A stretch of 49,442 nt of DNA, counting the filler, from Catajapyx aquilonaris (taxonomy: Eukaryota): the NCBI GenBank assembly GCA_000934665.2. It is 2 parts of 2 records of this genome, joined end to end, with 100 filler letters (N's around TTAATTAATTAA, not from the genome) between each part and the next. Parts side by side here need not be neighbours in the genome. Positions count along the whole stretch, not along the records: positions 24,714 to 49,442 come from JYFJ02005482.1; 1 more part is not named here. One strand, 5' to 3'. The notes beneath the pieces are model-generated. The model saw only the letters and a list, made by a program, of their open reading frames with translations, ran no database searches and was not told the DNA's origin. Made by a program: the position numbers and the translations under genes. This document shows positions 24,714-48,956 of this stretch, one piece after another. The stretch's first letter is position 1; the number at the start of each line of letters is the position of its first letter.

Positions 24714-24823
24714 ACAAGTGCACTCGGGTGTTTTAAAAAGGCGACCTGCTGACTTATACAAAGGGGAGTCTGGGGATTCGAAGCATTGACACTTTTTTTA
24801 AGGATATCATTCGTAAAGATTAC

Positions 24824-27800: not shown

Positions 27801-29060
27801 TTAGGCGATCTAAAAGATGATCAGACGTGGCTTCCATTGCCCCAGTGACTACCTGTATCAAATCCTGCGTTTCTCTAGACACTAGAGGACGTGGAGGTGG
27901 AGGACGCCCGGGTGGTGGTACTTTCTTCGGTGTCTCCTCTTGGTGAGACATTTCCGTTGCTTGTCCATCCTGAGAATCTGGAGCAGTATCCGGTTCCCGT
28001 TCCTCTGAATCTTGTGGTTTTAATTCAAGCGGAACTTCGGATGGCTGCGCTGGTGCAGGTTCCAACACTGGTTCTGCAAGAGAGTATTAACATTAGCATT
28101 TTATTCATACGTCTATTTTTTTAAAGGCATTAGGGCAGTACCTGAAGCAGTCATTGGTGGAGGGAGGTCTTCAGCAGGTTGGGAGCTGTCTACCCCGAAC
28201 AAGTCTGCAGCAACGGATGTTTGCGGATGTGCAACCCCAAAGACATCAGCTGCTGACGATGCAACTACTTCTGGACCAGCTCCAAATAAGTCTGCAGCAG
28301 AAGTTGGCGCTCCAAAGACATCTGCAGCGGCAGAAGTTGGCGCTCCAAAGACATCTGCAGCGGAAGAAGTTGGCGCTCCAAAGACATCTGCAGCGGCAGA
28401 AGTTGGCGCTCTAAAGACATCTGCAGCAGCAGAAGTTGGAGCTCCAAAGACATCCGCAGCAGCAGAAGTTGGCGCTCCAAAGACATCCGCAGCTGATGAT
28501 ACGACAGAGTCAGGGGGACCTCCAAACACGGCTGCAGCTGAAGATGCAACAGTGTCAACAGGACCTCCAAACATGTCTGCAGGTGCAGCAGAAGCTGGCA
28601 CTCCGAACATGCTGGCCGCAGACGACGCGACGACGTCGACAGGAACGCTGTAAGCTGTGGCAGGAACAGCCGTTGACATTCCAAACACATCTGACGGTTG
28701 AGATGTGCCAAAGAGGCCACTGCCAAACACATTTGCTGAGGAAGACACTGCCGCAGCCTCCGACACACTTCCAAAAAAGTCGGTGGACGTATTTCCAGCA
28801 TCTGACACTCCAAAAGATGCAAACGGATTGGTGCTGGCACCATTTGATGACGAAAAAGAAAAAGTTCCAGCCGATCCACCATGGTCATCTTCAACACCCA
28901 TGTTCAGGAAAGGGTTTGCTGAAGAAACTGCTGCTACAGGTTCCTCGGATGCAGAAAGAAAGGGGTTTGAACTCATCCCTCCCCCTCCACTAACAACGCC
29001 ACTACCAAAACCTCCACTATCATCCGACAGGAAAGGATTAAATCCTTTCTGCACTTCCAT
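24824..29060 (-). CDS. stnB: Stoned-B (stonin family endocytic adaptor), N-terminal part; second cistron, 3'-truncated by the contig end
   Basis: Exons 29060-28142, 28073-27720, 27623-27066, 26770-26581, 25002-24824 have consistent phases. Five NPF motifs (four at the N-terminus, plus LPPPKSP...SRFNPFDK), DPF motifs, FDAFAARF and Pro-rich tracts. It starts 20 nt after the stnA stop. The stonin- and mu-homology domains are not in the window. Confidence 0.88.
26077..26121. repeat. Intronic hairpin
   Basis: CAGTTTTTCTTGCAAAG-(11 nt)-CTTTGCAAGAAAAACTG, 17-bp perfect arms. Confidence 0.8.
28291..28493 (-). repeat. Coding 33-nt tandem repeat (AAADVFGAPTS x6) in stnB exon 1
   Basis: Six near-identical 11-aa units are visible in both DNA and translation. 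Confidence 0.9.
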
Positions 29061-29080
29061 GGTTGATGTGTTTATCTTAT

Positions 29081-32000
29081 TTAATTCAAAAGTTGAGATT
29101 CGAGTACCCTGATTTCAGCCTTGCCTGGTTGAGCGACTTTGTCCACTATAGAAGTGTCAAAAGGATCTGCTTCTTCTTCTTCTAATTCACCGCCACCAAT
29201 TTCAAAAACTTTCCTTTCTACTTGAGGTGTTAGTGGCTTTACTTTGTGAGGATCCTTGGACTCCAAAAGATGATGCTGATCAGTATCCTGAGGTTCTCCT
29301 TCTTCTGGAGGCTCGTCTGTACGGGGGTTAAAATCAGGGTCGGTTACTGACCTCTTTAATGATGTTTCTTCTCCGTTAACCAACTCGTCGGCTAGCAATT
29401 TTAGTTCTGCTTTTCCGGGAACAATGTTGTCTGCAATTGAAGTATCGAAAGGGTCTTCGTAGGCTGTTGCTTCAAGTTGCAGTCCAACAACCGGTGTTAA
29501 TGGTTTCACAGTATCGTCTTTTGTTCCTAGAGTCTCGGTTAAATCTAATGTGCTTGGAGGTGGTGGTCGAATTGGAGCTGCTGGCCTTGCCGGAGCTGCT
29601 GGTCTGAATGGAGCTGCTTTTGGTTGTCCTTCCTCTGCTTTTACTTCTCCTCTTGGATCAAAGTCTTCGTCCGATAAGCTCTTCTTTATAACAGCAGGAA
29701 TAGCGGTAGGTACAGTGGCAGGTATAACTATCGGTATCGACGGTACAGTAATTACGTCAGGTATAGTACTTTGCAATAATTCGTCTTCCAAAACTTTTAG
29801 CTCCGACTTTCCAGGAAGGATGTTATTGGCTATGGAAGTGTCAAAGGGATCTAGTTCTTCCTCTTGGAATGCTTTTCTCTCAACCACAGGAGTAAGAGGT
29901 TTGACACGATGCTGATCGCCCACTTCTAAAATAGCTTCGGCAGTAAGAGAAGCTTCCGGCGCCTTGGGAAGACACTCGTCTGTTTCTCCTTCCCGGGGAT
30001 TAAAGTCGTCGTCAGAAGTGCTCTCAACCGTGCCGACTAATTCGCTTTCAATTAGTTTAAGTTCAGCCTGTCCCCGAGGCAATATCTCTGCATATGAAGT
30101 GTCAAATGGATCTACGTAGTTTAACTTATCGTTGGAATTTTCCACGAGGGGAGTGAGGGGTTTGAATTCCGGTTTGGCCTCACCTTCAGGAGAGTGGAGC
30201 AAATCTGGTGGCAACACCTTTTGCACGGGCAACTCTTGAGGTCGAGGTTGAGGTACACTTTTAGCTGGCTCCTCTTTGCGGGGCTCAAACTCAAAATCAG
30301 AGAACCGTCGAACTTGTGGGATTGCTTGTGCTTCGGACAATTCCTTTTCCAACTGCTTCAATTCCGCTTTTCCAGGGGCGATGGCTTCCACGTGGGAAGT
30401 GTCGAAAGGATCTAGTTCTTCTTCCTCTTTCTTCTCCTCTTGGGCTATTTCTGCAGCAGGAGTGAGGGGCTTGACAATGCCTTCCGAAAGAGCGTCTTCG
30501 TCGTCGAATGCCCCGACCTTTAATGCATCCGGACGTAGCTGAGGTAGTGGTGGAGGTGGTTCCCCGGCTCGAGGATCAAAATCATCGTCATCTTCTTCTA
30601 CTTTGTCAACAGTTGAACGCAATAGTTCTTCCTCGAGCAACCGCAGTTCCGCCTTGCCTGGAGCAGCAGTAGTTTCAACAACGGAGGTGTCAAAGGGGTC
30701 AAAGTCGTCTGGTGGAGGTTTTGGTTTCTCTTCTTTCGGAACAACTGGTGCGATTGCTTCTCCCAACTGTGTCAAGTCAGTGGTGCTACCACTGAGAAGG
30801 TCTTTAGCAACCTCTAAGGAGGACTTTGGTTCAAATTCTTCATCAGGAATTGCATTTGGTTCCGATTTAGCTGGCGGGGGTCTACTTGGAGGTCCAGGCC
30901 TTGCTGGTGCAGGTCGTGGTGGTGCAGATTTTTTGGGTGGTTCAACTTCACTACTGTCTTCAAATTCAGCCCACTCTGATTTCCCAACTGGCTTCTCTTC
31001 TGGGGGTTTCTCTACTCCTCTTTCTTCTTTCTCTACTTCTATACCAGTACCCAAAGCAAAATCTGCAACCGAGGTGTCAAAAGGATCTGATGCGAATGGG
31101 TCCTCTTGTTCGTCCTTGACAGGTTCAGTATCAGCGGTTGGCACAGACTCGGTTGGTTTTTGTAGCGATTCTGATGCAAGAGCTGCAAACTCGTCTTCTA
31201 GGTCGTCGTCTTCGTCTCTTTCCTGCTTGACTGCTGGTGCAGGAGTTTCGTCCAAAAGTGATTCGACCCCAACGTCCGAAGCTGTCTGATCGATTACATC
31301 AAATTCGGCAACTAAATCCTTCAACCCCACGTCATCTTCCTTTACATCTGCAGCCTCTTTTGGCGAAGATGTTTCCTTGTCAGAGGCTTTTGGGGCAGCT
31401 ACAGCGGCAGTTACTAGAGTTGAATCTAGAGACTCTACAGCCAGTAGGTCATCCGAGACGTCAAGATCAAGTATACTCTCTGGTACTGTTTCGAGGGTTG
31501 GCTCAACAGGCGACTTTGGTTCAGGTTCTGTTTCTTGGGCTCCGTCACCTGCGTCAAAGCTCCCAAGCAAAAGGTTGACTTCCCGGGGAACAACACGGCG
31601 CCGTTTGCTGCTCTTGCTCCCAGATCCAGTTATAGCAGCTGCCTGATCTTTGTCGACTATTCCAGAGAGAACCTCAGCAGCCAAGCCCAAGTCCACTAGT
31701 TTCTTTTTAGGTTTTCCAGGAGTAACTTCCGGCTCGTTACTTTTGATGAGCGCGTCAACAGCGGAGGTGTCGAAAGGGTCCGGTTCGTCGTCCTTGGTAT
31801 CTTCTGTGGGGCTTTCTGGTACGTAGGCAAACTTAACTTCACCACTTGTTACCACATCTACGTATGAAGTGTCAAAGATGTCCTCGTCTTGCTCTGGTTC
31901 CTCTTCTGGGATTTCAACTATGTGCAACTGCTCAGGTAAATCGTCCTGTGTAGAAACCTCCGCCTCTGCAGCTCCCGCGGTTGCGCTGTCACCTTCCTGT

Positions 32001-32470
32001 ACAACGGCCCCTGCTTCCTGTGGTTGATTTTCTTTATCAGATTCGACTTCTTCTTCTTCCGGCTGTTGACCTTCCCCAAATCCTATCCACTTTTTTGATT
32101 TGCCACTACCCTTACGTTTAACCGGTTCTTTGCTTGGTACCTTTTCCTGCTCCTCCTTTCGCTTTCTTTGAAAGTAACTGTCACCCTTGATGCGATCTAG
32201 ATCTTCCTGGGTCTTTTTGAGGACAGTGTCAATACCACTGGTAAGCGCCTTGAATCTCTGCCATTCTTCGTTCTCCTCCTTCGGTTCGGCTTCTTCAAAC
32301 TCTGGATCTTCAAGAGCTGCTGCAGCCGCGGCGGCCCTCTTTCCTTCTGCAGCTTCTTCCTGGTCTCTTCTGTACTTGTCGAGCTCCTCTGCGCTGAAAA
32401 GTTCGTCGTCGTGATGCTTGCCCTTCTTGCCTTTGATCTTCTTCTTAATTCCCTTGGTTAGTTTGTGCAT
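29081..32470 (-). CDS. stnA: Stoned-A (1129 aa, single coding exon); first cistron
   Basis: Starts MHKLTKGIKKKIKGKKGK just after the acceptor CTTTCAG| at 32496. Contains EEWQRFKALTSGIDTVLKKTQEDLDRIK, eight DPFDTS motifs, six PGKAELxxLE-type repeats, and DFDPR/KPLTP repeats. Highly acidic with no internal Met. The ORF-track extension to 32608 is intronic. Confidence 0.93.
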   Translation of the reverse strand: MHKLTKGIKKKIKGKKGKHHDDELFSAEELDKYRRDQEEAAEGKRAAAAAAALEDPEFEEAEPKEENEEWQRFKALTSGIDTVLKKTQEDLDRIKGDSYFQRKRKEEQEKVPSKEPVKRKGSGKSKKWIGFGEGQQPEEEEVESDKENQPQEAGAVVQEGDSATAGAAEAEVSTQDDLPEQLHIVEIPEEEPEQDEDIFDTSYVDVVTSGEVKFAYVPESPTEDTKDDEPDPFDTSAVDALIKSNEPEVTPGKPKKKLVDLGLAAEVLSGIVDKDQAAAITGSGSKSSKRRRVVPREVNLLLGSFDAGDGAQETEPEPKSPVEPTLETVPESILDLDVSDDLLAVESLDSTLVTAAVAAPKASDKETSSPKEAADVKEDDVGLKDLVAEFDVIDQTASDVGVESLLDETPAPAVKQERDEDDDLEDEFAALASESLQKPTESVPTADTEPVKDEQEDPFASDPFDTSVADFALGTGIEVEKEERGVEKPPEEKPVGKSEWAEFEDSSEVEPPKKSAPPRPAPARPGPPSRPPPAKSEPNAIPDEEFEPKSSLEVAKDLLSGSTTDLTQLGEAIAPVVPKEEKPKPPPDDFDPFDTSVVETTAAPGKAELRLLEEELLRSTVDKVEEDDDDFDPRAGEPPPPLPQLRPDALKVGAFDDEDALSEGIVKPLTPAAEIAQEEKKEEEELDPFDTSHVEAIAPGKAELKQLEKELSEAQAIPQVRRFSDFEFEPRKEEPAKSVPQPRPQELPVQKVLPPDLLHSPEGEAKPEFKPLTPLVENSNDKLNYVDPFDTSYAEILPRGQAELKLIESELVGTVESTSDDDFNPREGETDECLPKAPEASLTAEAILEVGDQHRVKPLTPVVERKAFQEEELDPFDTSIANNILPGKSELKVLEDELLQSTIPDVITVPSIPIVIPATVPTAIPAVIKKSLSDEDFDPRGEVKAEEGQPKAAPFRPAAPARPAAPIRPPPPSTLDLTETLGTKDDTVKPLTPVVGLQLEATAYEDPFDTSIADNIVPGKAELKLLADELVNGEETSLKRSVTDPDFNPRTDEPPEEGEPQDTDQHHLLESKDPHKVKPLTPQVERKVFEIGGGELEEEEADPFDTSIVDKVAQPGKAEIRVLESQLLN

Positions 32471-34483
32471 ATTCCACCGGAGTGTCACGAAGTGGCCTGA
32501 AAGTAATTCGTATATGACCTTACGCTCCAATAATATTTGCCTATGCATGCTCATAAACCACATTATGTCCTTGTGAGTGGTTTTATTCTCATAATGCAAT
32601 CCATGCAAAATAATTGTGCCGTTCGTATCATTTTACAGCTCACTGCACTGTTTACTAATAATGGTAATGATGAAGTTGATCATTACTAGATAGTCTGTTA
32701 TTCTCACTATTGTTAAGCATAGACTACTACTTGTGTACTAGCCTACCTGTTGCAATTTTGATCTGAATCTCCATATGCAAGTTAGGAGTATGATTTCACG
32801 TACTATACAATCATAAACAGTAGCCTACTTGACACGTAGCCTACTATAAGACAAGCCAATAAGTTTCGACCAAATGTACCTTGGCGCTAGAGAACCCTCA
32901 GCAAGAACTTTCACCTTGCAGGAGTGCTGACAATTGGACAGCGCCAATATGCCCTTCGCCTATTGTTTGACATACAGGCCTAATACGTTGTCAATAATCA
33001 AAAGCTTCGCCAAAAATATTGGTATGATATGTTACATTTTAGGCCTACTGTATTTTGGATGCGCGTCTAACGTAGTCTAACGTCCAAAATTATTGGTATC
33101 CAATTCCCTCTATAGTTATGCTAATTCGCACTTTAGCTATTACAGTATTATTACCTGACGCTCTCAATATCAGGCTGAAACCTTTTTCCTAGAAAACATT
33201 GCGTCACCATTTTTTTTATTGCGTGCTATAGCATTATGAGTCGAGTCTGGTGCTATTTATGGCCATTTCATTGTCAGTATCGTCCATACAAAAATTACCT
33301 AACTGCGACGCCTCAAACTTAACAATAAGAGTGATTCGCAGTCCAGAAGGAGTAAAGGCTACATTCAGCCAACGACAAAGTTTGTCCGAATTCTCCTGCG
33401 AGCTGCTAATGACTTTCCATGTTACATCAAATAAAGTCATAAAATATTGTGACTGATCGCGGCACTCTCGCACCGAAAACACCATGTCACGCATATTGTA
33501 GGCCTATATGCCAGCAGTTGAGCCTGTCACTCTTGCCTTCGAGTATTCGGGTTCAAGGGAATGGCCTAAAAACAATCGATCAATAATTTGCACATTTCAT
33601 ACACGTCAGAGGACATTCCACAGTACCGTATAATATTATTAACATAATCTGACACACTAGCAAATTTTCATGCGGTAGAAAAGTCATTGGTTGTAAATTA
33701 GGCATTAGGCATTAGCCCTGGTTATGAAATGACCTGCAAGTGCTACTGCCGTCGCAGTAGGGCGCCATGTTAGAAAACCAGAAGTCAATAAATGGGACGA
33801 AAACCGGCCGGAGAATGACGTCATTGCCCATGGCGGCGTCGTATATGGCCCAGTCTTGAGAAAATGGATACCATCTAGAGCTAAAAATACACCACAAACT
33901 ACTGACACGATATGAGATATTACAGGTGCATCAAAAGAATTGGATCACCACCATGTAGTCTGAAGTGGTATGTGCACAGCAAGTGTACCACTAGGGTGCC
34001 TCCATATTATGAAAATAAGTTGTATGTCACATTATGTACAACAATTATACAGTTTTCAACACTGATCCTGACAAGGTAATGAACACCTTTCATTTCCAAT
34101 ATGACCACGCACAACACATGCACACAACCTACGCACACATCCGCGCTTACCTCCTCCGGCATGACAGGGCACGACCCCTGCTTGATATCACTTCCCGAGA
34201 CATGAATCAGAGAGCTGGCCACGGATTCCAACCGAACAATAAGCAATACCTAGGACACACACTCAAACTCCCACGCACACACTCAAAGACTAGAACCACG
34301 GAGGTGGTTGGAAGGAAAATGGTGCCATTTGACTAAACAACGAATGTTCTTCTGGTATGTAGGTAAGGTACAGGTGGGGTGGGTGCTAGCAGCTAGTTAG
34401 TGGTGAGTGTTTCAGGTGAGAGTGGGTGTGAAGGCGAAAGAGATGGTGAGGAAGCACTGGGCCAGTCCCACTACCTCACTCAC

Positions 34484-34655: not shown

Positions 34656-35358
34656 GATCGATCGGTCAAGGCTCATCTGGTGTCCTCCGCAATATAGGGA
34701 CTGTTTCATCATCATGGTGGAAGGCAGGTGCACCACAGTGGTCATTCATAAACAAGCAGTAATGACCACCTGCAGTCAAAAAGTCTGTACTGGAGCATGG
34801 AGCTTCGGGGCTAATGTTGTAATCGACACTTATCTTTGTGTAATATTATGCAAGAAGTGATAGTAAACTTATATAGCTGTAATATCAGATTTTGCAATGA
34901 GTAGTTTGCCCAAATCTGTAAAGTGACCTTAAGGGATGACAATAAAAGGGCACCTTACTGAGTCTTATTTCTCTGCAATATTAACGTCACTTTCGAATTT
35001 GAAAGCTACCGGTTCCGTGCCCTGGTGGAAAGGGTGCGTACTGTTGGCCTCGATGGCTGTTAGCTGCTTTGAAATTGCACAAACTCAACCTTCGTGGGAG
35101 CTCCTCTGACCACCTTCACCCGGTATTCTACATGTACTATAAGCACAATATACTATAAGCACAGTCATATTGTTGGCGTGTATGAGAAAAGTCTGCTGTT
35201 GCGCACTCTATGTGCTACATAAAAATTATATTATCTGCAGTCTGACTCTTCTGTAGTGGCCAACACAGCCACCTGAAGCGACAGCATCCTGTATACTGGA
35301 GAGTCGCATAATTATGTGAATGAATTCATCCGGGCAACTTTTACCACTTTCTAAAAAT

Positions 35359-36037
35359 GAATGACCCAGAATGGAAAGGGCATAAGTCCATGAGACAAAA
35401 TTTTACAGGGGAGACAAAAAACTTAAATGCGGCATTGTAAATTCGTCAAGGTGGTCGGACTCGCGGGAATGTTGATCTTAGTCGACATTGGCATCATGTT
35501 GAGCAGAGTTCGGTGGAAAACGCGTCATGACAGATGCGTGAGAGCGATTTAAAGGGACGGGACTTACGTCCGTTTCATCTGAAAGATGGCAGGATGAGAA
35601 AATCTGTGCCGTTCTGTCACATGATAACATAAGTAACACAAAATAATGTATTATTTTGTGTTACTTATGTTATCATGTGACAGAATGGCACATATTTTCT
35701 CATCCTGCCATCTTTCAGAATGAAAGGGACGTAAGTCCCGTCCCTTTACTTCAACATTTTCCTGAATACATGTAGGTATTTACCGGATAATGACACGATG
35801 GACAAAGTGCATTTTCATTCCGAAGCAGCAATTTCAGCATGGAAAAGGTGTAAGTCTAGATCTTCCCCCTTTGCCATTCTGGAGGCAATTCTGACATGCT
35901 AAAATATAGCATATGGGTGGGGACTTTCGCTCCCTCTCATACTGGATCTTATGCCCTCCATGCTGAAGAGTTTTCTTCCGCGAAAAAGTCATTTTGACCA
36001 AAAGGTGGACTTATGCCCTTTCCATTCTGGGTCATTC
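35359..36037. mobile_element. Non-autonomous TIR element, Sola1-like
   Basis: Perfect 32-bp TIR GAATGACCCAGAATGGAAAGGGCATAAGTCCA with AAAT on both flanks (an AWWT 4-bp TSD is typical of Sola1). Long internal palindrome at 35551-35747. Confidence 0.8.
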
Positions 36038-36697
36038 AAATATATAAACTGGAACGTGTATGCATTTTTAGCAGATTTTTAGAGTGACTCACAAATAAAG
36101 AGCGTATATCCAAACTGCCTCCAGAAACATTATGTATATATAGCCTACTGCATATTTATCCAATTATTTGACTTTGATTGGACTGCCTGGATTTTAAGAA
36201 AGGAAACTGTGAACATGAGAACAGGCATGATACATGAGATGATCGACGTGAGTCACAAAAATCTAGCGTGGACTGTCCTAGCTTATTACCTGAATCTGCG
36301 TCCTTGTTTCAATAAAATTCCGAATTCCCATGACTGGTTATTTTAAAAGGACTGAACCATTGATATTTTTGCTGCACATTTGCATATCGTTTAATAGATA
36401 ACTAAATAGTGACCCAGCCAATAGTGACTATGTTAAATGAAATACAGTAGTACACAACATCATCTTCGTTCATTTTTCTTTCTACTTCAGTGGCATTAGG
36501 CCTGCTATACTGCATCAATCAAGATATAATTTGTCCCAAAATGCACCTCCGTCATTCCACTTTGATTATGACCTTCAGGGCATCTTAGTTGGCTTTTGAA
36601 AGTCATATGGCAATCATTTTGTCCCTCTTCAAGATGGTGTGTTTGCAAAAAGAGCTGTTGTAAGTTTCCTTAAACTTAATAGATGCATGCCTTAGCT

Positions 36698-37018
36698 CAG
36701 GGGTTCCCAACCAGGGGTACGGAGCTAAGTAACTTACCCCTGAGCCCAAATCGAGCAATTTTGGACATAGCACAGCCCATATAAAGTGGCTTCACCAAAG
36801 GAAAACATATAGCTGGTTTATATTCGAAAAAATAACTTAATTTTCTTTCACTTCATTATATTCCTGGTCCCAAAATATTGATTATAAGGTAGTTATCACA
36901 ATGATCACGGATTAGTTAAATGTCAAGGATTCGGTAACCTGTCATCCTGGTAGGGGGTACGAGAAGGACCAACTTCTCTCAAAGGGGTGTGAAGGCCCGA
37001 AAAGGTTGGGAACCACTG
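36698..37018. mobile_element. hAT (Charlie-like) MITE
   Basis: TIRs CAGGGGTTCCCAACC / GGTTGGGAACCACTG; 8-bp flanks CCTTAGCT and CTTTAGCT (7/8 match). Confidence 0.85.
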
Positions 37019-38268
37019 CTTTAGCTGATTTTCACAATTTTGTCTCCATTGAGAAGATAATCGAATTTTGTGACATAGATGGTGAAATTGTAGCACTCAG
37101 ATATAATCACTCGTTCTGGTAACCGACTGGTAGAACTGGTCGGCTATTACCTATCCTTCATACGTATAGATGGTGTCACGTGGATTGACATGCGACTACC
37201 TTCGTAAAAAATGGAGCATGCTTTGCCAAATCAAGTGAAGCAATTAAATGTTACAAAAATTTGAAAGGAACTTTAATATGAGACAACTGGCCTATCATTT
37301 CCACCATCCTCCTATACATGTATTATGCCCTCGCATGCAATGTCATAGCATAATATTGCAAATCCAGCCCATGCAAGTGTGACAGTTCAATAAATTATCG
37401 CTTCGTATATATATTGTACGACGCGATGATAGTGAACCATATCACACTCTTTTCTTGCTGGGCATAGAGAGCACCTGCCCGACCTCTACTGATAACTGCT
37501 CAGTACTACATCAAGGATCCTTATCACATTATGTGACGGCGAGAAGCGACATTCCACTTTCACTGACACTAGACAGCGAGTGTACAGTGTACTCTGCAGA
37601 CTCGGCACGTTACAGGCAAAGCAGCATCCTGCAGGTAATAATAGTTTTATGCACGGTGGTTTTATGTAATAGGGCACCGGTAGGCCTACATGACAGGAGT
37701 GTTGTCCTTCAGACATTCTGATGTACAATTTTCCGAGTGATCCAAGTTAATCAGGATATCTGGAATACCCACACATATGTGTGTGTGGTTAAACCATGTT
37801 ATAGATAATATAGACGTTATCCTGAAATGTTTTTTTTCAATACCATACTATTAGTTTTCCGTCGGCATAGCACGTCATCAAGGCAGTTTGGTACCGCAAG
37901 TCATACAGGAACAATAATTAATTGCTCTCATATGATTATCCTTTAGAAGACTGCAGTTACTTCGTAAAATAACGCGTGAGTTGCAAACAGTATGTAAACA
38001 ACTTAAATTGGTATTGTCACAACTGTGTCGACCTTGAAAATCATCCGTTTTCCTCATCGTAAGGCGTACTGTTTGTAAGCGCAGTAATATAATGTTACTA
38101 GTGCATTTTATAGTATTGTTCTTTAGATGCCGGAGCGTCCTTGAGGCTACCATAAAAGGAAGAGCATTTTTGCACACTCCGCGATGCATTTGATACAGTA
38201 ATATGTCCTCATTTCCTTATCTCTACAGCAGCAGCAAGAATCAAACAGCTTGACAGATATCAGGTGCC

Positions 38269-39394
38269 ATGGAAAACATCTGGCCGAATCCCCGTCCACC
38301 ACATGCAAGCCAACATAGGTGAGTTTAAGATATATCACTGCCGTATGTGTTGCGAAATCTGTGGTGTCAGCAAAATATTGAAATTATACCCTTAGGGATG
38401 ATGTGATAGTAACCGTGATGAAAGAGGAAGGATTGACCCCTGATGAAGTCCAGTCTACAGGAAATAAAGTGTCCTTTGTGTCACACGGCATTGGCGAATT
38501 TAGGTGTCTGAATTGCTGCTCAAACACATGGCAATCGAGCTGGACATGGGCTGTCCTCAACTTCTACGAACAACAGTGCCATTATCTCTACGGGCAAAAA
38601 TGCCGCCATTGCTACAACCGTGTTATGCCGCCTAACAACTATTTGTACGAGCAGTGGGAAAGGCCCATTTTTGAGAAGAAGCACTGGGAACATCTGGTTC
38701 GGAATGCAGTTCAGAGGCAAGTATTGTTCCGCATTTTTTTTTTCACCAGTCACTGATACATAAAAAAATACTCATTTTAGTGAATGAGCCACAATAAAAC
38801 AATTCAGTAAAATATCGTGTACTTTTACCGACTTTTACTTACGGCCAGTTGTATGCAAGGAAAATAAGGAGCATCTCTTATTATGCTTAGCTATGTCCAA
38901 CACATAATCCTACACATAGATTTCCTCATAGAACTCGGAAAAGGCATTTTCTCTCACGTCCTGCCACTGAGATCTATCCTACCCTGTCATTTTTTTTTTT
39001 TTTTTTTGCATCAAAGGATCGCTCAATCGATTGCTCAGAGCGACAGGCCTTCTCGAATTTGCCACATGATGTCGCATTTTAATTCACACTGAAGGCTGCC
39101 TGGAACTGTAATGGATTGAAGTATGAATATTACGTATTGTAGATTCCAATGCGCAATAATATATAACTCTTTAAGAGCATTGATCTTCTTGAATATTTCA
39201 GTGCTAAGAACTACATCTCATATATTGATGGAACAAAGCCAAAAGAGGAGGAGGTTGAGGGTCAGCAGCCAGAAATTCAGCTGCCAGAGGTTCCACAGCT
39301 ACAAGAGGAAAGTGTCCCAACAACAGGGCCCCATGAAGTTGCTCTGTGTGAAAGGTGCACTAGTCTGCACCGTCCTTGCTGGAGACGTCGCTAA
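38269..39394 (+). CDS. 3CxxC zinc-binding domain protein (RTP/ZAR1-like), paralog A (~187 aa)
   Basis: Exons 38269-38318 (MENIWPNPRPPHASQH), 38396-38716 (GEFRCLNCCSNTWQSSWTW...QKCRHC), 39202-39394 (GPHEVALCERCTSLHRPCW); 564 nt in frame. The second intron uses a GC donor, AG|GCAAGT. Confidence 0.85.
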
Positions 39395-41086
39395 CTTTCA
39401 CATATTGTATGTCAATTAGAAGTCTGACGTTGCCTTATCAGGTTACAAACCGCCTAAACTACATTGGATTTTTTATTTTATACCGAATATCAAGTGAATT
39501 TTAATTAACACGAGAATGTGAGAACTGCATCCAGTGAGCTAAATGTAAGCGTTGAAGGATGCTTAATATCAACATTTTTGTCAATCATTCCTGTATCCCT
39601 ACATATAGTTTGAAAGCGGACTTTCTCACATACAGATGTTGTATACAGTGTGTTATTGCGACTTCCCTTTCACTCCCATTTTATTCCCACGCTATCTGTC
39701 TAGTGACTAATTAAAGCGCAAGATAACATTTTAGGAGTTTTGAGATATAAGCATAAAACTGATTATGAATTACAGAAGCTGTTACAGCAATGACATCGTA
39801 TTTTGATTAGAATAGTTGTGGTACATAGCATAGTCTCGATTATATGGACTTCGCATTATACGGATATCCACCCGATATGGTATGGCAATTTACAAAGTTG
39901 TACTGCCAACTCAGGCATGCAGGTTATTTTCCAGTCACATCCTTCTGTGCTGCAGGGAGCTGCATTTGGCTAGAGAGGCGTAAGAACAGGTATCGGACCT
40001 GTGTTTGCAGTCGGAATTCGTAAATCGGACACAGCGCATACAACATGGGACAGTTTTACGACTGCTGAGATGGCACTGACTCTAGGAATACCTCGTCCCA
40101 AGAATCGCTGTAGCCTGTAGTCGTAACTGTCTGCGAAATCCCGTGAATCTTTGCAAATGCACGACAATTCGACGATGTCGTGCGTGTAATGCTGTTGTCG
40201 GTCGCATTTTTGAGCACGTTCTTTGAATAAATATGTTGTTCACACTCATTGGCTTCCATTCATTTATGTAGCAGCTCTACCGATATCTTCTGTCAACGCC
40301 CTCTAACATCCAAGGACGATGTCAGCGGACATATGCAGTATATTCATAGATTCAAAAGGTTTGTCTTGCTGTTCCCCATCTACAGTACGGTACCATTTTG
40401 TAAACATAGTTTTAAAACACCCTGTATGCCAATATATTGTGTCATTAGCAGAGGTCGAATTTTTTATGAAACTTGTCCCTCTTCCTGCTCTATATAGATG
40501 GGGTTCAGGAGGTGTTCAGCAACAGCCACGAGTCACTCCGGTTCATTGCCAAAAACTATCCATAATAATGTCAATTTGATGATGATGGACATACAATTTT
40601 AAATGTTGCTCATCGAGCACTTCAGTTGGCTGCTTGATGGACACACAGTTGTTGCCATAATTAGTTAGAAATTAGTTAGAAATAAACAAAAACGTTGTTT
40701 ATTTTCCCGCCCCTGAAACTCACTGGAAATTCTTCAAAACTTACATATTCTCTTGGAGCCCCAAAAACAAAACGTTAATAGTAATAATAGAATAGGGGTT
40801 GAACGCAAGAATGGACTATAAGCGCCGAGAGGTGCAAATGGAGATAATTAGACCTAAAGTTAAAAATTTGTACAGTACTTCTGATACGTGCACGTACATC
40901 TCATAAGCTCTTATGTTGCAGACAATGAATCATACAATTTAGTGATGAAATTGAAGAAACGTATTTATTACTGCATAACCCCCAAAAATTTTAACTTTGA
41001 CAATCCGTTTGCGCACAACATGGTAGATAGTCCATTTTAACAAGGACAGAAATTTGCTTCATTTCACATAATGGAGCTTTAACATG

Positions 41087-41670
41087 TCAGGAATGCACTT
41101 TGCACTCTCTCTGTTGCATGGAAGCCTCATTCACCAGATCAGGAGCATCTGAATCGTCGACGACAACTCCATCACCTTGGGTATCACATGGTTTGAGGTT
41201 CCGGTAAAAATGTGCATATGCTGCACTGGGAACAAAGTCTATCAAAGTCAGCAGATGTTTCACCTTTGCTTCTTGAACCAGTCTTCCCTCGGGATACAAT
41301 GGCAACAAGTGAGTTAGTCCCAGCTGCTTGACCTGGCCCCGTGTCGCCTTGCGAATGTTCAATGTTCGCATCATTTCATTAGGATTGTGTGAGTACTTGT
41401 ACCTCAATTGGAAAGGGTGATTCCTGGTGACCTCCAATTATTCCAATATCTTGAGCCTTTTGATTTTCTGTATTAATTTTGCGGTGAGTGACTTTGTACA
41501 CCACAGTATACATTTCACGTTGACAATTTCACGACATGTCATTTCATGAACTACAAAAGGTTTCTTAAGCTTTGCCTCTCTGACAGCATCTGCCCAGTAA
41601 CAAGGAAGGTAAACAGCTCGACTTGGCTTTGCCTTTCCTATAACTTAAAACCTCAATCAGTTTCTATACA
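41087..41670 (-). pseudogene. Degenerate DNA transposase C-terminal fragment, Sola-like
   Basis: VIGKAK...VYLPCYWADAVREAKLKKPFVVHEM...LYPEGRLVQEAKVKHLLTLIDFVP...HFYRNL, interrupted by a stop and probable frameshifts. It resembles Sola transposase C-termini as I recall them. Confidence 0.6.
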
Positions 41671-42335
41671 TGCACCGATTGCTTATCTACAGCGGAAATG
41701 TGCTTATCATTACTTTTATTTTTAAAACTGCATCATGTAACTATACAGTGCACACAGAAGATAATCACTAGAGTGCTTTTTGCCTTGCAGCGACTGGCGA
41801 AGGGTTTTTTGCGTAGCGATATATTTACTACTGCCTCGCAAAGAAAGGTAGGAATATAATATTTTGTGTGTCGGTGAGTATGGGTAATGCTGAAACTGCA
41901 AGAGGTTGTAATTTAAAATGATTTTGATACCTTAACAAGTCTTAGATATGCATATAAAATATAATCGACCCTTTGCAAAAAAAAATTAAATACGGGTCGC
42001 ACATCACTGAACAGAAGTGACATTTATTTGGTAGGAAGTAGGCTATCATGCCTTTTTTGAATTTTTGTAATCAATGTTGGAAGCACCATAACCATGGACA
42101 TTTGTAGCCTATCGTTTGTTCCATAATTAAGCGTACATTCGTATCAGAATAAATGTCACGTACAAGTCCTGTTGGCCCCTTGAGGAAGTGAGGAGCTAGA
42201 TGCAGGAGTGCACGCGACATTTTCACCCATATACACACATAATATCAATTATTAAACATGCGGTATAGTTCTGTACACTTTTTTCATGTTGGAGCAGACC
42301 CGAGAAAATTCACCCGACATGCAGAAACAAGCACT

Positions 42336-42389
42336 GGCTAAGGACAACTCACGGGCTAAGGACAACTCACGGGCTATGGACAACTCACG
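42336..42389 (+). repeat. 18-nt tandem repeat x3
   Basis: GGCTAAGGACAACTCACG, GGCTAAGGACAACTCACG, GGCTATGGACAACTCACG; likely a transposon subterminal repeat. Confidence 0.8.
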
Positions 42390-43025
42390 GCCAAAGTTCC
42401 GGCCATGTAATGACCATCAGAAGAAGTTAGTATAATAATCATTGTATACATAGCACTTAACTGTACATAACTTTGCAAATTGGTTCATTTCCAACCGGGG
42501 GAGGCCAAACATCTGCGATAGCAGGTTGGTTATGAATCCTGTCCATATACTCGTACAGTATCTCATCCGCGATAAATGGTAACATTATTATACTGTGTTT
42601 CAATTGAGGTGTCCGTGTAATTTAGTAATTCCCTCCCCCCCCCCCACTAAACTACCTATTGTTAGGAGCGGATCTAGGCTGCAAAAATAGGCTCAACCCG
42701 CGGGTTCAACCATTGATCTCAGATGGCATTTGGTCAAAATGTGTCACTCGCAATGACTTCAGATCGGAAATTCATTGCAAGTCATGCGGCCTTAATGAAT
42801 TAGCTTCTACTCAACCTGCTCAACCTGATATTAAAAGCACACATTTATGATAATCTGATAACGTTGGTGACTTGATACGATTCAGAAGTGCAAACGAGCA
42901 TGCCCAGATTAATGCAGTCATTTTGAATTAGTGGATTCGAGTAGGCCTATAGGTATTAACTAGCACTCTTAACAACAATAAAGGTCCGTGCAAGATAGCG
43001 AAAAGGTGAAGCACATACCCCCACG

Positions 43026-43140
<115 letters not shown>

Positions 43141-43271
43141 TATTAAAGGCCAATTTGACTGGTATATTTGAGCTGATTGATGATAAAGTATTCTGAAAAA
43201 TGAGTTTCAGGACAAGGGCGCAATTTCAGTGCTTGCCATATGCGCTCTTTTCAGTAGATCAGTACGCCTAT

Positions 43272-43947
43272 ATGCCAGAGATCTCTTCAACAACTGTTCA
43301 CATTATTATCAGTGATTCAGTGCTCAAGTATTCGAGTAAAAACATAAACACTAACACTTACGAATAAATCCACGTTCTTGTACGTTATCTTATATTACTT
43401 AACATTATTCTCAGAGATGATATCACCGTGAATGTCATGAAAGAAGAAGGACTTCTTCCAAAGGAGGTCGAAGAAGATTACAGAAGCATCGTGCATAAAT
43501 GCACAGGATATTTCCAATGTCTGAACTGTGGAAAAAATTGGACTTCGGTGTGGACCTGGGCAAAAATAAGTCTCTACGAACAACAGGTCCTATATCTTTA
43601 TGGACAAAAGTGCGAAAGATGCCAAAATTATTTTGAAAAGCCAACATTTTACAGTGAAGATTGGGAAGACCTAGTTCGAGGTGCAGTAAAACGGTACGAT
43701 GGTTTAGAATTCTATTCTGCATTATGCTGCCAAGTTGTGTTAAGTGATATCAACAGAACAGCTGAATATCTTTTTCCTTTCTTTTAGTGCCATAGAAGGC
43801 CTCACTTATAATTATTACATCACGTTGACTGAAAGGAGTGGAGAACCATATCAACAATGTGATGGACCCCACCGACCTGGGATGTGTGAGAGATGTGTTG
43901 AACTGATGGGAATAAGGCCTTGCTGGCTTGGCTGGTATAAGAAGTAG
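43272..43947 (+). CDS. 3CxxC zinc-binding domain protein (RTP/ZAR1-like), paralog B
   Basis: Firm exons 43415-43693 (DDITVNVMKEEGL...GYFQCLNCGKNWTSVWTW...QKCERC) and 43788-43947 (GPHRPGMCERCVELMGIRPCW). The first coding exon 43272-43327 is tentative (correct phase, weak donor). Confidence 0.82.
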
Positions 43948-44622
43948 TTAATTTTTATGAAGAATCATTGTCAGTCTCGCGGAGAAAGCTATACAAGTCT
44001 ACATGATGCATACAGCCTACACTGTGCAATCAAGATGCCAATCAGTATCATGTTATAACTTTCTGAACCTCTCTATAGTTTCGTTGGAATAGACTAGATA
44101 TACAGGTGGTGCATTGTATACACATCCACAGTATAAAAATGGAGGAAGAGGAGACATCGTGAATTGTTTACTTACCGAAGCAAACAGTTTAAGGCAAGAA
44201 ACCCATTGGAAGCAACATACTGTCATTCATTGTCGTGATTGATACCTTCATTTATAACTTCTCTCCTTTCTCGTATCCCGAATAGTGGACAGGGAAATGC
44301 ACCACTATGTATAAGCGTGGTGTAAATAATTATAGTATAAGCTCCTTTAAAACATCTTGTAATCATAAAATTATTTCTACTTTTTATGTGGAATAAACGT
44401 AACGGGGCATATTTAAAATCAATGTTAGAACTTATCGGATTATTTTTGTATCTCAATTTGTCAAGTGACAGCAGGTTGCACCGAAGATGAAAGTATGTTA
44501 GTATATACATACAGCACTGGATGAATAATTTTGGTGTTCAAGTACATTTGGATCTGTCGATAAAAAATCAGGCACAAATGTGAAACAGATTTTTTTACAT
44601 AGGCCTACTCGTACTGCTCACC

Positions 44623-44624
<2 letters not shown>

Positions 44625-44661
<37 letters not shown>
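44625..44661. repeat. (CT)n microsatellite
   Basis: Directly visible. Confidence 0.9.
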
Positions 44662-44663
<2 letters not shown>

Positions 44664-45134
44664 CAATAACGTCTACTTTCTTGTGAACAATGCGAGTAGG
44701 CATATTTGGTAATTGTTGCACACAGAATAAATGTTTTTTTTGGGAAATAATGCATAAATTCATATTATTGTCGCACACCTAATGTCAAGAGTAGTCTAAC
44801 ACTCATTTTCCCCGTTAGCTGCTGCATTACAAAAAGTCTGGCTCTTCCGAGTATACCAGTCTGTCTAGTACGTAAAGCAATATGACACCCTCCAACCCAA
44901 CGACGACTGCCGTAGAGACAATAAAGCAGTAAAATGTGCGTAATCAAGGGCACGCTGCCCGTTGACCTCTGCTGATGGGGACCAAAGTCCACACTCTGGT
45001 AATGTCGCATGAGCCGTCTGCAACCTTGAAGGCGCGACGAGGGACACTTTTTTAAAACCATTTATTTGTTCTTTTTTTGTCTGCATAGGTCCAGAAAGGT
45101 CAGCCATGAGTCCCATGACCACATATTTGGGTAT

Positions 45135-45470
45135 ACACTGTACTCCCGATTATCCGGGCTAATGACTGCATGGGCGTAGCCGAATAGTCGGAAAACACGG
45201 ATAATCCTAAAATGGTTCTAGATACTGTAAAAGTGAGCTGTTCAGAGGTTTTTAATGATCTACTGTACATAGTATATATGTGCTTTAAATAAGGTTATTT
45301 AATCAAATAATGAAGCTTGCCACGCATTTTTAGTTTGTCTTCTGGAAATAGTACATGTTACATTTCTTTATTTGCAAGGCATACAGTATTGACAGTTTTT
45401 GCACTCTTATTTATTTTACTTTGTTTTGGCGATGCACGGATAATCCGCAAGGATAATCGAGAGTATTTTA
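45135..45470. mobile_element. Degenerate pogo/Tigger-like MITE
   Basis: TACTCCCGATTATCC at the left and GGATAATCGAGAGTA at the right, with internal CGGATAATC repeats. Confidence 0.5.
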
Positions 45471-46166
45471 ATGCAAATCAATATTCAGTATATTTCATAT
45501 CATAGTGGATTTCTCAGTTACTAGCTAAAAACTTTAGCGGCCGTTCTATCTGCTTTGGCCCCCCTCATACCCCCCCNCCCCCCCCCCCCATTCAAATCCC
45601 CCAAAGGTGGGGATAGTGCACTTTATGAACGCACCGAGTGTTTACGTAACGTTCACCAGCCCTGGCTGCTCTAATAATTTCTGTCATTTTAAATACCAAT
45701 ATAACCAATATATATACTGTGTATAGGCATTGTTTTTCCCATATAAATTTGTATAAATTTCTGAAAACCGCAACCTACTACTGGAAGATAGAAGGTAGTT
45801 GCAGAAAACAGCTATGCTACTGGTTTGTACTGTCCGCCAGCAGTTCCATTTGTTTCCAGCTCATCAGTGCGAGCACAAGCCACCTGCCGAAGCTCCTCTG
45901 TCTGGTAAGGATTCCAGTGGTTATATCCGCCCATGCTTCCAGCAGTTTCACAGTGGCTTACAATAATACAGGCTATTACTACTACCATTAACTTTATTGT
46001 GATTAGTTAGCATTTAACTAGATAGACAATCAATTGTCGTGTTTCTCATGCGTTTTACGCAGCTACAGGCAGACTGAATTAACATTTCCATGCCAAGGAC
46101 ACGTGTCTGAATCCTCGAAGCAGTCTAATAATGTCAAAAAATAATAAGTAGGCTACCGGTAACTAA

Positions 46167-46312
46167 TGGTTGAATTTTAGTCCCACTGCTAGTTACTGAT
46201 AACTTAGGAGTATCTGTGTTGGGGACGGTTACTACTAACTTAGCAGGATCTGTGTTGGGGATGGTTAATGCTAAGTTAGCAATAACTAGCATTGGGACTA
46301 AAAATTCCACCC
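46167..46312. mobile_element. Hairpin MITE, PIF/Harbinger-like, copy 1
   Basis: TAA|TGGTTGAATTTTAGTCCCACTGCTAGTTACTG...CAATAACTAGCATTGGGACTAAAAATTCCACCC|TAA; same family as the copy at 46961. Confidence 0.65.
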
Positions 46313-46336
46313 TAAGTCACATTTTGAAATTTCAAA

Positions 46337-46527
46337 GAGGCCGTACACATATTACGTCATCACATTTTTGACATTTTGACCCCCCCCCCCTCGCCTCCCC
46401 CTCGTCATACTTCGTCATCATTTGGCAACCCCCCCNCCCAACTTGGACCCTCCCCCTCCCCCTCTCGTCATCTTTGGTCATCAGGTAGCCCCCCCCTTCG
46501 ATGATGACGTAATATGTGAACGACCCC
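46337..46527. mobile_element. MITE with ~25-bp TIRs (PIF/Harbinger-like)
   Basis: GAGGCCGTACACATATTACGTCATC ... GATGACGTAATATGTGAACGACCCC, with C-rich internal repeats. Confidence 0.7.
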
Positions 46528-46960
46528 CAAAGCTTCAGTCCTTTTTGGACAATGGTGGCACGTGGTAACATGAAGCCTAACTGCTCTGCGTTATCTTTTG
46601 CGATAAGACTTATGGCAGCAAAAATGGCTCGGCTAGACTCTTATTTTCCAATAAAGTCCAGTTAAGATCTTGCCAGTATTAATAATCACTGGGCAACGAA
46701 TTTTGACAAAAGTCGAGGCTCTGTCAAATACCCTGTAGACATTCATTAATGATTTCAAGGCGCTGAACACGAATAATCGAATGTGACAATGAAAATGAAA
46801 ATGAAAAATTGGCTACGGTTTTTGAGAAATTCGCAATAGTTTCTTATACAGTATAATAGAGCCATACGTACCAAGTAGTATACACTACATAATTATGACA
46901 TGTACCAGTAAATGGTTAAAATATGAGTTATAACAGTATTTTCAAGTGCTTGAAAACATG

Positions 46961-47072
46961 GGGTGGAATTTTCGTCTCACTGATAGTTACTGCTAACGTA
47001 GCAGTACCAGTGTTGGCAATGGTACTGCTAAGTTAGCAGTAACTATCAGTGGGACGAAAATATATTCCACCC
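46961..47072. mobile_element. Hairpin MITE, copy 2
   Basis: ATG|GGGTGGAATTTTCGTCTCACTGATAGTTACTGCTAAC...GTTAGCAGTAACTATCAGTGGGACGAAAATATATTCCACCC|ATG; 3-bp direct flanks. Confidence 0.7.
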
Positions 47073-48085
47073 ATGAGTTTTTAGGCAGTGCCTTGGACAC
47101 CCAAAGTAGTGAATTTTATTAATTAAACATGATTCGTATTACTTGTGAACGATTATGCTCCAATGATGAGCACAAAAAATACTCCGCTAAAAACCAAACA
47201 TATGCCTCTGAAAAAATTGGTCCGTAATAGGCCCAAAAAGTCCCGAAATTGCTTCAAAAAGTTCAAAAACTATCCCAAAAAAGGCCAAATAGGCATGAAA
47301 AGTCGCAAAAAGCCATAATTTTATGCAAAATAGTTCCCAAAACCACGAAATGTGTAGTTTTAGGCACTATAAAACCAACATTTTCTACATCCTGCACTAT
47401 CTTATGAAACGGATAGGTCTCTTCACAAAACCATCCCAACTGTTAAGGAACTTAATAGGCATTTACCTATAAATCCGGACTCTCCTTATAATATACGTAC
47501 ATAGCTTTCTCAGAGGCTTGAATAATTAGATCCATTTTTGACCTTTTGACCATCGTATCTCAAAACCTATTGAGATCAAGGGTTTTTCTGAAAATGTGCT
47601 TTCTTTCTAGCAGATAGAGAACCCAAAATACACAATTTGAACATGAACTTCACATTGAAATTCGCGAGGTTTCCTTGTACGTCGCATACAGTAGTTTATG
47701 CATGACCATATATGACCATGTCTGTCTCTCCTAAACTATAGCGCCAATCGACAATAAATTATTGTCATATTCATGTTCATCACTTTGGAATTAGTCAAGA
47801 TTAGCTATTTCCATTTCAAAGCCTGTTTCTGTGTTGCCCAGTGTAACCTTTTCTGGTTACGCTAATGTCAGTTAGGCCTACGTTTGTTCTTACACATGGC
47901 AGACGAAATAATGGCTTCATTAACACAGTAAAATCTGCATCTTGCACTCGAGTTCAAACTAGAAAATGATAACTCGAGGCTGGCGACGCGACGTGACGAA
48001 TCGTTTAATGACAACAATAACTGTAGGCTATACAATATACCTTCTATTATTATGTAATATTTTTACAGGTAAATTCTTCTCATCA

Positions 48086-48956
48086 ATGGTACGGAAAAGG
48101 TGTGCTGGGTGGCCAAACCCAGTACCGCAGATATCAGGACAAGCTGGTGCAGCCCGTCCAAGGTAACAGTCACATTTACCTTCTTCAACTGAGATTAGCT
48201 TGAAATGAAATGAATGTTCCCTGCTCAATGGTCTGGATATTCTGCCCAATACTAGCTTAATTTCCCAGTGAAAACATGCACTCTGCATGTCGTAAAGTAA
48301 TTGATAGAAGGGGGCTTAGCAGTTGGGTATCAATACTGTGTAAGATGTACGATTACCTCTGAGGAATACTGAGAAAATTCCACCCTTTTTCAGCAACGAG
48401 CCGACGACAGATCGAGTGATACGGGAAGAAATGTACCCGACAAATCCATCCTCCTTTCATGGACACAGAACCATTGTCGCTAGAGGAATGGGGCATTTTC
48501 AATGTCGTAACTGTCATTACCGCTGGAATTCGGCTTGGACTTGGGCTACCATCGATTTTTATGCCCAAAAATGCACTCGTCTCTACTGGCAAAAATGCCG
48601 AAAGTGCAGGAGACCATTACCATCGTACCCTACATTTCAAGAGAGCTATTGGAGAAAATTAATCCAAGAGGGACTCTCCAAGTTAGTAAACTTACTACTT
48701 ACAGTCAGACATTTTAATGGTGCATGTTACAATTATTGAACATGAAACTGGTAAAATTATGAGAGAATATCTACATAAGGCTACTTTCAGGTGGGACACC
48801 GTCTACGTGCATCCCATCTACCAAGTGAAGAGCGGCAGGGACAATGGGAATCGCAACTCTGATGATCCTGCCACTGGTCCACATCATTGTGGACTCTGTG
48901 AAAGGTGCCAGAAGCTTGGATTTGCGTGCTGGTTGTCCTACAGGGGCTCCGATTAA
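48086..48956 (+). CDS. 3CxxC zinc-binding domain protein (RTP/ZAR1-like), paralog C (~176 aa)
   Basis: Exons 48086-48162 (MVRKRCAGWPNPVPQ...), 48394-48681 (GHFQCRNCHYRWNSAWTW...QKCRKC), 48791-48956 (GPHHCGLCERCQKLGFACW); 531 nt in frame with GT-AG introns. Confidence 0.88.

Follow-up and report, generated by a model that had tools for sequence, protein, structure and literature searches.

A 49,442-nucleotide stretch of DNA from Catajapyx aquilonaris (assembly GCA_000934665.2; the window below, of which positions 24,714–49,442 come from JYFJ02005482.1) carries three tandem genes, here called A, B and C, whose predicted products belong to the zf-3CxxC zinc-domain family and, judged from sequence, to its RTP type. 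In our interpretation, small cytosolic 3CxxC proteins of the RTP type have expanded in tandem within one lineage and may serve as RNA-binding antiviral restriction factors, and we hold this interpretation with about even confidence; that the three proteins bind RNA is, in our judgement, likely. Counted in favour of the antiviral RNA-binding interpretation are membership in PF13695, an RTP-type profile and the grouping of the three genes in a clade of their own, together with the fold matches of a spider relative to ZAR1 and Shiftless and the fusion of related domains to OAS and PIN domains.

Domain identity and gene structure

We scanned Pfam with the exon 2 and exon 3 pieces rather than with the spliced proteins. 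Exon 2 alone scored 30.8 (A), 33.8 (B) and 39.7 (C) bits against PF13695 (zf-3CxxC, Zn_ribbon_3CxxC), for which the curated cut-off is 23 bits, so that the family call of the first-pass annotation holds for all three genes. The two CxxC pairs and the H-x4-CxxC motif are complete in each protein. A profile of 31 relatives, built with the window rows excluded, aligned past the exon 2–3 junction as far as the last H-x4-CxxC and the CW with 91–114 bits, although this profile is not fully independent because its relatives came from the window's own profile. On the same exon pieces, the ZCCHC24 models fell short (best PF17180, E 0.061, 13.9 bits against a cut-off of 27; no match to PF23490), and PF15135 (Shiftless) gave no match above cut-off. 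Profile-profile comparison with RTP using hhalign gave 98.5% (E 3.9e-15, 81 columns), and the RTP features that follow the second CxxC, P-x-F and a helix, are present. The exon 2 profile scored single-domain vertebrate-RTP-like rows, labelled by sequence signature and not by source name, at 35–40 bits and ZAR1 at 16 bits. By these comparisons the three genes are neither ZAR1 nor ZCCHC24. Their domain is of the RTP type, with RTP nearer to it than ZAR1 is, and the genes are best described as members of a putative invertebrate sister group of the RTPs. Of the RTP/ZAR1 likeness proposed at first, the RTP part stands, and the ZAR1-like germline reading is weakened. In the Atlas, look-alikes of gene A were PF13695 clusters of rotifers and ascomycetes, and the nearest clusters to gene C were PF17180/ZCCHC24-like arthropod clusters (0.90).

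In a six-frame scan of the window, G-x-F-x-CxxC, W-x-S-x-WTW, QKCxxC and GPH-x4-CERC co-occurred at three loci only, all on the plus strand, in agreement with the shared motif scaffold described earlier. No fourth copy was found in the window by tblastn with the three proteins as queries; the end of gene C is 486 bp short of the window edge, and further copies may lie beyond it. Models derived from splice signals and reading frame gave three exons per gene and predicted proteins of 187 (A), 181 (B) and 176 (C) amino acids (Table 1), with the first CxxC at residue 54–71. The tentative exon 1 of gene B contains an 18-nt repeat in 3.3 copies, and an alternative in-frame ATG upstream at 42286 is possible. 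All six introns are in phase 2, given a GC donor at 38717 for intron 2 of gene A; this is probably a GC-AG intron where paralogues B and C have GT, and the frame would equally be kept, in phase 0, if a GT donor at 38721 were joined to an acceptor at 39208. Hence the equivalence of phase-2 introns claimed in the first-pass annotation is exact for intron 2, which falls at an identical aligned residue in A, B and C, and for intron 1 in A and B, but intron 1 of C lies one codon off and the phase of gene A intron 2 depends on the GC donor. Maximum 19-residue hydropathy was 0.44 (A), 0.37 (B) and 0.19 (C), consistent with proteins that, as first described, have neither a transmembrane helix nor a signal-peptide core. 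Net charge is –4 for A, +3 for B and +13 for C, the most basic paralogue (isoelectric point 9.5), and the linkers cannot be aligned among the three.

Table 1. Predicted features of the 3CxxC cluster, with the basis for each
Feature	Position	Strand	Basis or content
Gene A coding exon 1	38269..38318	+	start codon; phase-2 GT donor; WPNP motif in common with gene C exon 1
Gene A exon 2	38396..38716	+	N-terminal helix, CxxC, W-x-S-x-WTW, QKCxxC, P-x-F, helix; PF13695 E 4.3e-7; GC donor end
Gene A exon 3	39202..39394	+	acidic linker, GPH-x4-CERC, CW, stop
Gene B candidate coding exon 1 (tentative)	42319..42425	+	phase-compatible donor as sole basis
Gene B exon 2 (core 3CxxC domain)	43415..43693	+	PF13695 E 5e-8
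Gene B exon 3	43788..43947	+	GPH-x4-CERC, CW, stop
MITE-like repeats in the B–C interval	46168..47072		nested inverted repeats
Gene C coding exon 1	48086..48162	+	splice signal and frame
Gene C exon 2 (core 3CxxC domain)	48394..48681	+	PF13695 E 7.6e-10
Gene C exon 3	48791..48956	+	GPH-x4-CERC, CW, stop; AATAAA about 150 nt downstream

Relatives, phylogeny and predicted fold

The exon 2 profile retrieved 119 proteins among 1.84 billion representatives, and 117 were kept after two were dropped as false: the top match (P0001), a 5972-residue repeat protein of bacterial type, and a TPR protein (P0060). A word-based search with a 34-row alignment found six proteins among 622 candidates, three of which joined the set of relatives, and a word-based homologue search with gene B exon 2 gave no candidate. 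In a 45-row sample of the relatives, 43 matched PF13695 and one each matched the ZCCHC24 models. Four spiders, two urchins, one crinoid, amphioxus and one fungus were among the 30 of 119 matches looked up by name; no hexapod protein appeared by name among these 30 or the six rows of the alignment-based search. Most relatives are short (102 of 120 have at most 260 residues; median 167), and transmembrane-like segments occurred in 4 of 123 sequences, window proteins included. The rarity of stand-alone soluble domains implied by the first-pass annotation is not supported, in view of these counts, the fish and Xenopus RTPs, and named invertebrate examples, annotated as uncharacterised 3CxxC-type domain-containing proteins, from Parasteatoda (XP_042896459), Oedothorax (KAG8193294), Uloborus (XP_054707447), Stegodyphus (XP_035217249), Strongylocentrotus (XP_011677642), Antedon (XP_071942880) and Branchiostoma (C3Z048). 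Like the window proteins, these are small and soluble, with a single PF13695 domain after an amphipathic helix and the same order of motifs and predicted secondary structure; they differ in having only about 20–31% identity to gene A exon 2, and the window genes form their own clade. No viral homologue was detected, with 0 of 47 pattern matches in viral contigs and no BFVD match at E 0.001.

Trees were built without full ZAR1, ZCCHC24 and Shiftless sequences. Genes A, B and C formed one clade with Shimodaira-Hasegawa (SH) support of 98 (97 rows) and 92 (35 rows); this grouping makes the expansion proposed earlier look lineage-specific, a term that is coarse in resolution because the tree sample holds no close hexapod relative. 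A clade of the window genes with the spider proteins was rejected (approximately unbiased test, p-AU 0.037). A branch of the free tree that united six rows of vertebrate RTPs with a single fungal row split from all other rows, the window genes among them, at SH 98, but a joint clade of the window genes with vertebrate RTPs was not rejected (p-AU 0.228; unrooted, 159 columns). Two pairs of relatives (P0011/P0018 and P0074/P0160) come from equal-sized source contigs, a hint that tandem copies recur in other lineages.

Pairwise protein identity is 47% (A-B), 36% (A-C) and 33% (B-C); the strong divergence stressed in the first-pass annotation is ordinary for the 3CxxC family. Over 108–113 core codons, synonymous differences are saturated (pS 0.72–0.83) with dN of 0.41–0.64, and identity between paralogues is 34–41% at third positions compared with 60–74% at second positions. 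The three genes are old duplicates retained under purifying selection and, with open frames and complete motifs, are intact as first reported.

An AlphaFold (AF2) model of gene A exon 2 had a predicted local distance difference test score (pLDDT) of 90.6; its helices and strands follow one another as they do in the model of a spider relative at full length (P0009; pLDDT 87.8). Foldseek placed the ZAR1 RNA-binding domain first for the spider protein (probability 0.99, E 0.038; VIA Z 6.4, root-mean-square deviation (rmsd) 4.4, 87 aligned) and human Shiftless, annotated in the Atlas as an antiviral inhibitor of frameshifting, second (probability 0.99, E 0.12; VIA Z 4.4, rmsd 4.6, 71 aligned). The ZAR1 RNA-binding domain ranked first in all four PDB fold searches. 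Compared with the gene A exon 2 model itself, Shiftless gave Z 2.3, as against Z 4.4 for the spider stand-in, and no Pfam match.

Domain fusions were found among the relatives. In one cluster of three members (P0086/P0128), of which the longer two derive from ENA and Logan, a 3CxxC domain is fused to a complete C-terminal OAS-like nucleotidyltransferase (OAS1_C above cut-off, E 1.6e-7; PDB OAS1, E 1e-4), and the zinc finger may be an RNA-targeting module. In P0059, a 3CxxC-like domain below the Pfam cut-off is joined to a PIN_4 nuclease domain. Three other proteins (P0070, P0052 and P0054) have two or three 3CxxC-like domains per chain, P0070 without a Pfam match.

A single match, at 41%, among 596 metagenome contig stretches was to a different RTP-like type. 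At positions 950–1141, this animal-looking contig (L001) carries an exon of an RTP-like gene of a second type, one closer to the canonical form, which has an RTP-style hairpin and, unlike the window genes, a phase-0 intron at a different position. An RTP-like domain in an arthropod was noted in 2013, according to the accessible part of PMC3639994, in a gene conserved between arthropods and tunicates (Ixodes XP_002405527, Ciona Ci8long). The contig is probably of the Ixodes type, which suggests that arthropods hold two 3CxxC/RTP lineages. The Ixodes/Ciona gene differs from the window genes in being apparently slow-evolving, with 55% identity between Ixodes and Ciona.

Proposed function and competing explanations

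The proposed mechanism is modelled on vertebrate RTPs. In the accessible portions of PMC10470548, PMC12431671 and PMC8172065, the 3CxxC domain of RTP4 is the viral-RNA-binding, antiviral core, and the transmembrane helix is dispensable; PMC8172065 further describes, in the part available, fish RTPs that have no transmembrane helix and eleven Xenopus RTPs, ten of them induced by poly(I:C), that originated by recent duplications. The window proteins resemble RTP4 and the fish and Xenopus RTPs in the P-x-F and helix between the second CxxC and H-x4-CxxC, and in repeated duplication within a lineage. By contrast, they have no disordered C-terminal region, their central hairpin is shorter, and W-x-S-x-WTW replaces the RTP motif; the C-terminal transmembrane helix, which they share with fish RTPs in lacking, is confined to amniote RTPs. 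By inference from RTP4 and ZAR1, the CxxC, CxxC and H-x4-CxxC ligands would bind zinc and hold a beta-sheet-plus-helix RNA-binding fold. By analogy only, the genes would be switched on by nucleic-acid sensing of the STING/NF-kB type, and the proteins would block viral replication by binding either the RNA as it replicates or proteins of the replicase. Given their different net charges and unalignable linkers, the paralogues could cover different targets.

Several observations weigh against an antiviral function. Averaged over the paralogues, selection is purifying and not positive, although a comparison with saturated dS is blind to positive selection at single sites. Fold scores are modest, with no match at E 0.001, and the truncated exon 2 model of gene A matches ZAR1 only at noise level (E 1.1; Z 2.9). 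Fusions are rare (one OAS and one PIN among 117 relatives), neither A nor B is basic as a whole, and the same domain serves mRNA storage in ZAR1 and receptor trafficking in RTP1/2. A Nematostella gene annotated as ZCCHC24 rises with cyclic GMP-AMP (log2 fold change 3.96 and 2.29; supplement of PMC8713801, as far as available), which is weak support for an antiviral function because the gene is by name of another 3CxxC subtype and is one among thousands of rows. An RTP-domain isoform of Ciona is, in the accessible part of PMC3639994, not induced by lipopolysaccharide. In the 2 kb upstream of each of the three genes, regions that may miss the true promoters, kB-like sites were not enriched and strict sites were absent. 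A lone relaxed kB-like site upstream of gene A was rejected, as it sits at the end of an inverted-repeat element.

A rival explanation is that the genes encode endogenous mRNA regulators like ZAR1 and ZCCHC24, acting in storage, translation or decay of germ-line and embryo transcripts, with duplication reflecting tissue sub-functionalisation. We consider this unlikely but deserving of real weight. The ZAR1 RNA-binding domain (PDB 9jko) is the best structural match throughout, G-x-[FY]-x-CxxC...W-x-S-x-x-x-W and PH-x4-CxxC...C are common to the window proteins and ZAR1/ZAR1L, with the W-x-S-x-x-x-W element not found in RTP, gene C has its nearest Atlas cluster on the ZCCHC24 side, and old paralogues under purifying selection would fit such a role. 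However, the extra CxxC-x-CxC cysteine cluster of ZAR1 is absent from all three window proteins, which have a helix in its place, and they also lack its long N-terminal intrinsically disordered region, the ZAR1 domain starting only at residue 319. ZAR1 R397 is required for RNA binding (PMC12799850, in its accessible part); by its inferred position this is the residue before PH, which would be Gly in all three window proteins and in most RTP rows. Zinc-ribbon features may link the window proteins to ZCCHC24 and to Shiftless (SHFL, PDB 9kbo; Atlas 0.90 and 0.78, respectively), but this likeness spans only 53–71 residues and PF17180, PF23490 and PF15135 gave no match above cut-off. Finally, the high divergence across the family would suit conflict better than housekeeping.

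An improbable alternative is that the proteins are protein-binding accessory factors like RTP1/2, either soluble receptor-surface chaperones or immune-signalling adaptors, that have lost RNA binding. The RTP-type domain and the low net positive charge of A and B would be consistent with this, and the accessible part of PMC8172065 reports that the transmembrane helix is dispensable for receptor trafficking and that RTP4 also regulates TBK1 signalling. Opposed to it are the absence of a membrane anchor, the separation of the vertebrate RTP branch, and the OAS and PIN fusions, which point to RNA; no receptor gene was noticed adjoining the cluster. We give very little credence to a decaying or neutral array of one working gene and two drifting copies. 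Such decay could account for the non-canonical donor that the shared phase requires in gene A and for the uncertain, repeat-containing exon 1 of gene B, but all three frames are open, every CxxC and His motif is intact, the codon-position and dN pattern is that of constraint, and gene A exon 2 is predicted to fold with high confidence.

Extending the antiviral interpretation to the whole family, we propose, as a view that we find possible rather than probable, that the small soluble 3CxxC proteins form an ancient class of antiviral RNA binders, inducible and present across animals, that preceded interferon and was the source of RTP4. The fold of this class would have a common origin with those of Shiftless and ZAR1, with independent invertebrate expansions and occasional OAS or PIN fusion as an RNA-targeting module, and the locus would be its hexapod arm, a protein-based restriction layer beside RNA interference (RNAi). 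To our knowledge, arthropods are without interferon, and beyond RNAi few of their proteins are known to act directly against viruses. If the window genes restrict viruses like RTP4, a vertebrate interferon-stimulated effector would extend to invertebrates, and the small, soluble, easily expressed proteins would be convenient for testing; the 3CxxC-OAS fusion, as an independent pointer, merits further attention. Should the window genes instead regulate host mRNA, the locus would be an ordinary paralogue cluster. A literature search, with subscription journals largely outside its coverage, found no functional study of small 3CxxC proteins in arthropods. Such genes are unmentioned in the main texts of PMC9980059 and PMC13319465 and in one supplement file of PMC10917227, and other supplements may list induced 3CxxC genes under bare identifiers; a text match to '3CxxC' in PMC10194337 was rejected as a residue number. 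That the family exists, takes a soluble form, has expanded repeatedly and occurs in arthropods (Ixodes in 2013; spiders by annotation) is already known. What is new here is further members of a widespread invertebrate family, and the interest lies in the family-level question of function, less in the locus itself.

Possible transposon remnants and other genes of the window

The first-pass annotation had described transposon debris between the genes. Support for this is partial, coming from the MITE-like (miniature inverted-repeat transposable element-like) repeats between B and C but not from transposase families, which were found in none of the 44 scanned frames between the genes (46 existed) and in none of the 78 scanned intergenic frames overall (80 existed). 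Two minus-strand segments between A and B (about 39950–40250 and 41090–41440) resemble what we take to be DNA-transposon remnants. A nested foldback element at 35344–36052 contains a 70-nt near-perfect hairpin inside inverted repeats, and at 36697–37020, upstream of gene A, lies a short, presumably hAT-like element that has terminal inverted repeats.

The upstream neighbour of the cluster is stoned A, a single-exon frame on the minus strand (29081–32632) whose best full-length match is from the termite Coptotermes (240 bits, compared with 157–179 bits for decapods). In a quick tree this stoned A groups with insects and away from malacostracans at SH 87, although on an unresolved node, as would suit a pancrustacean that is probably an early-branching hexapod. 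A second start lies about 20 nt past the stoned A stop, and the minus-strand frame that it opens (28113–29114) is probably the N-terminus of stoned B. The stonedA/B arrangement is dicistronic in Drosophila; a 1935-residue stoned-B-like protein of Vanessa also matches the stoned A N-terminus and therefore appears to be fused. On the plus strand, exons at 14566–16451 belong to a gene that has a PAN domain (E 6.3e-6) as well as stretches rich in Gly and Tyr and several copies of an R-D-L-D-P-Y-R-D-L-I motif.

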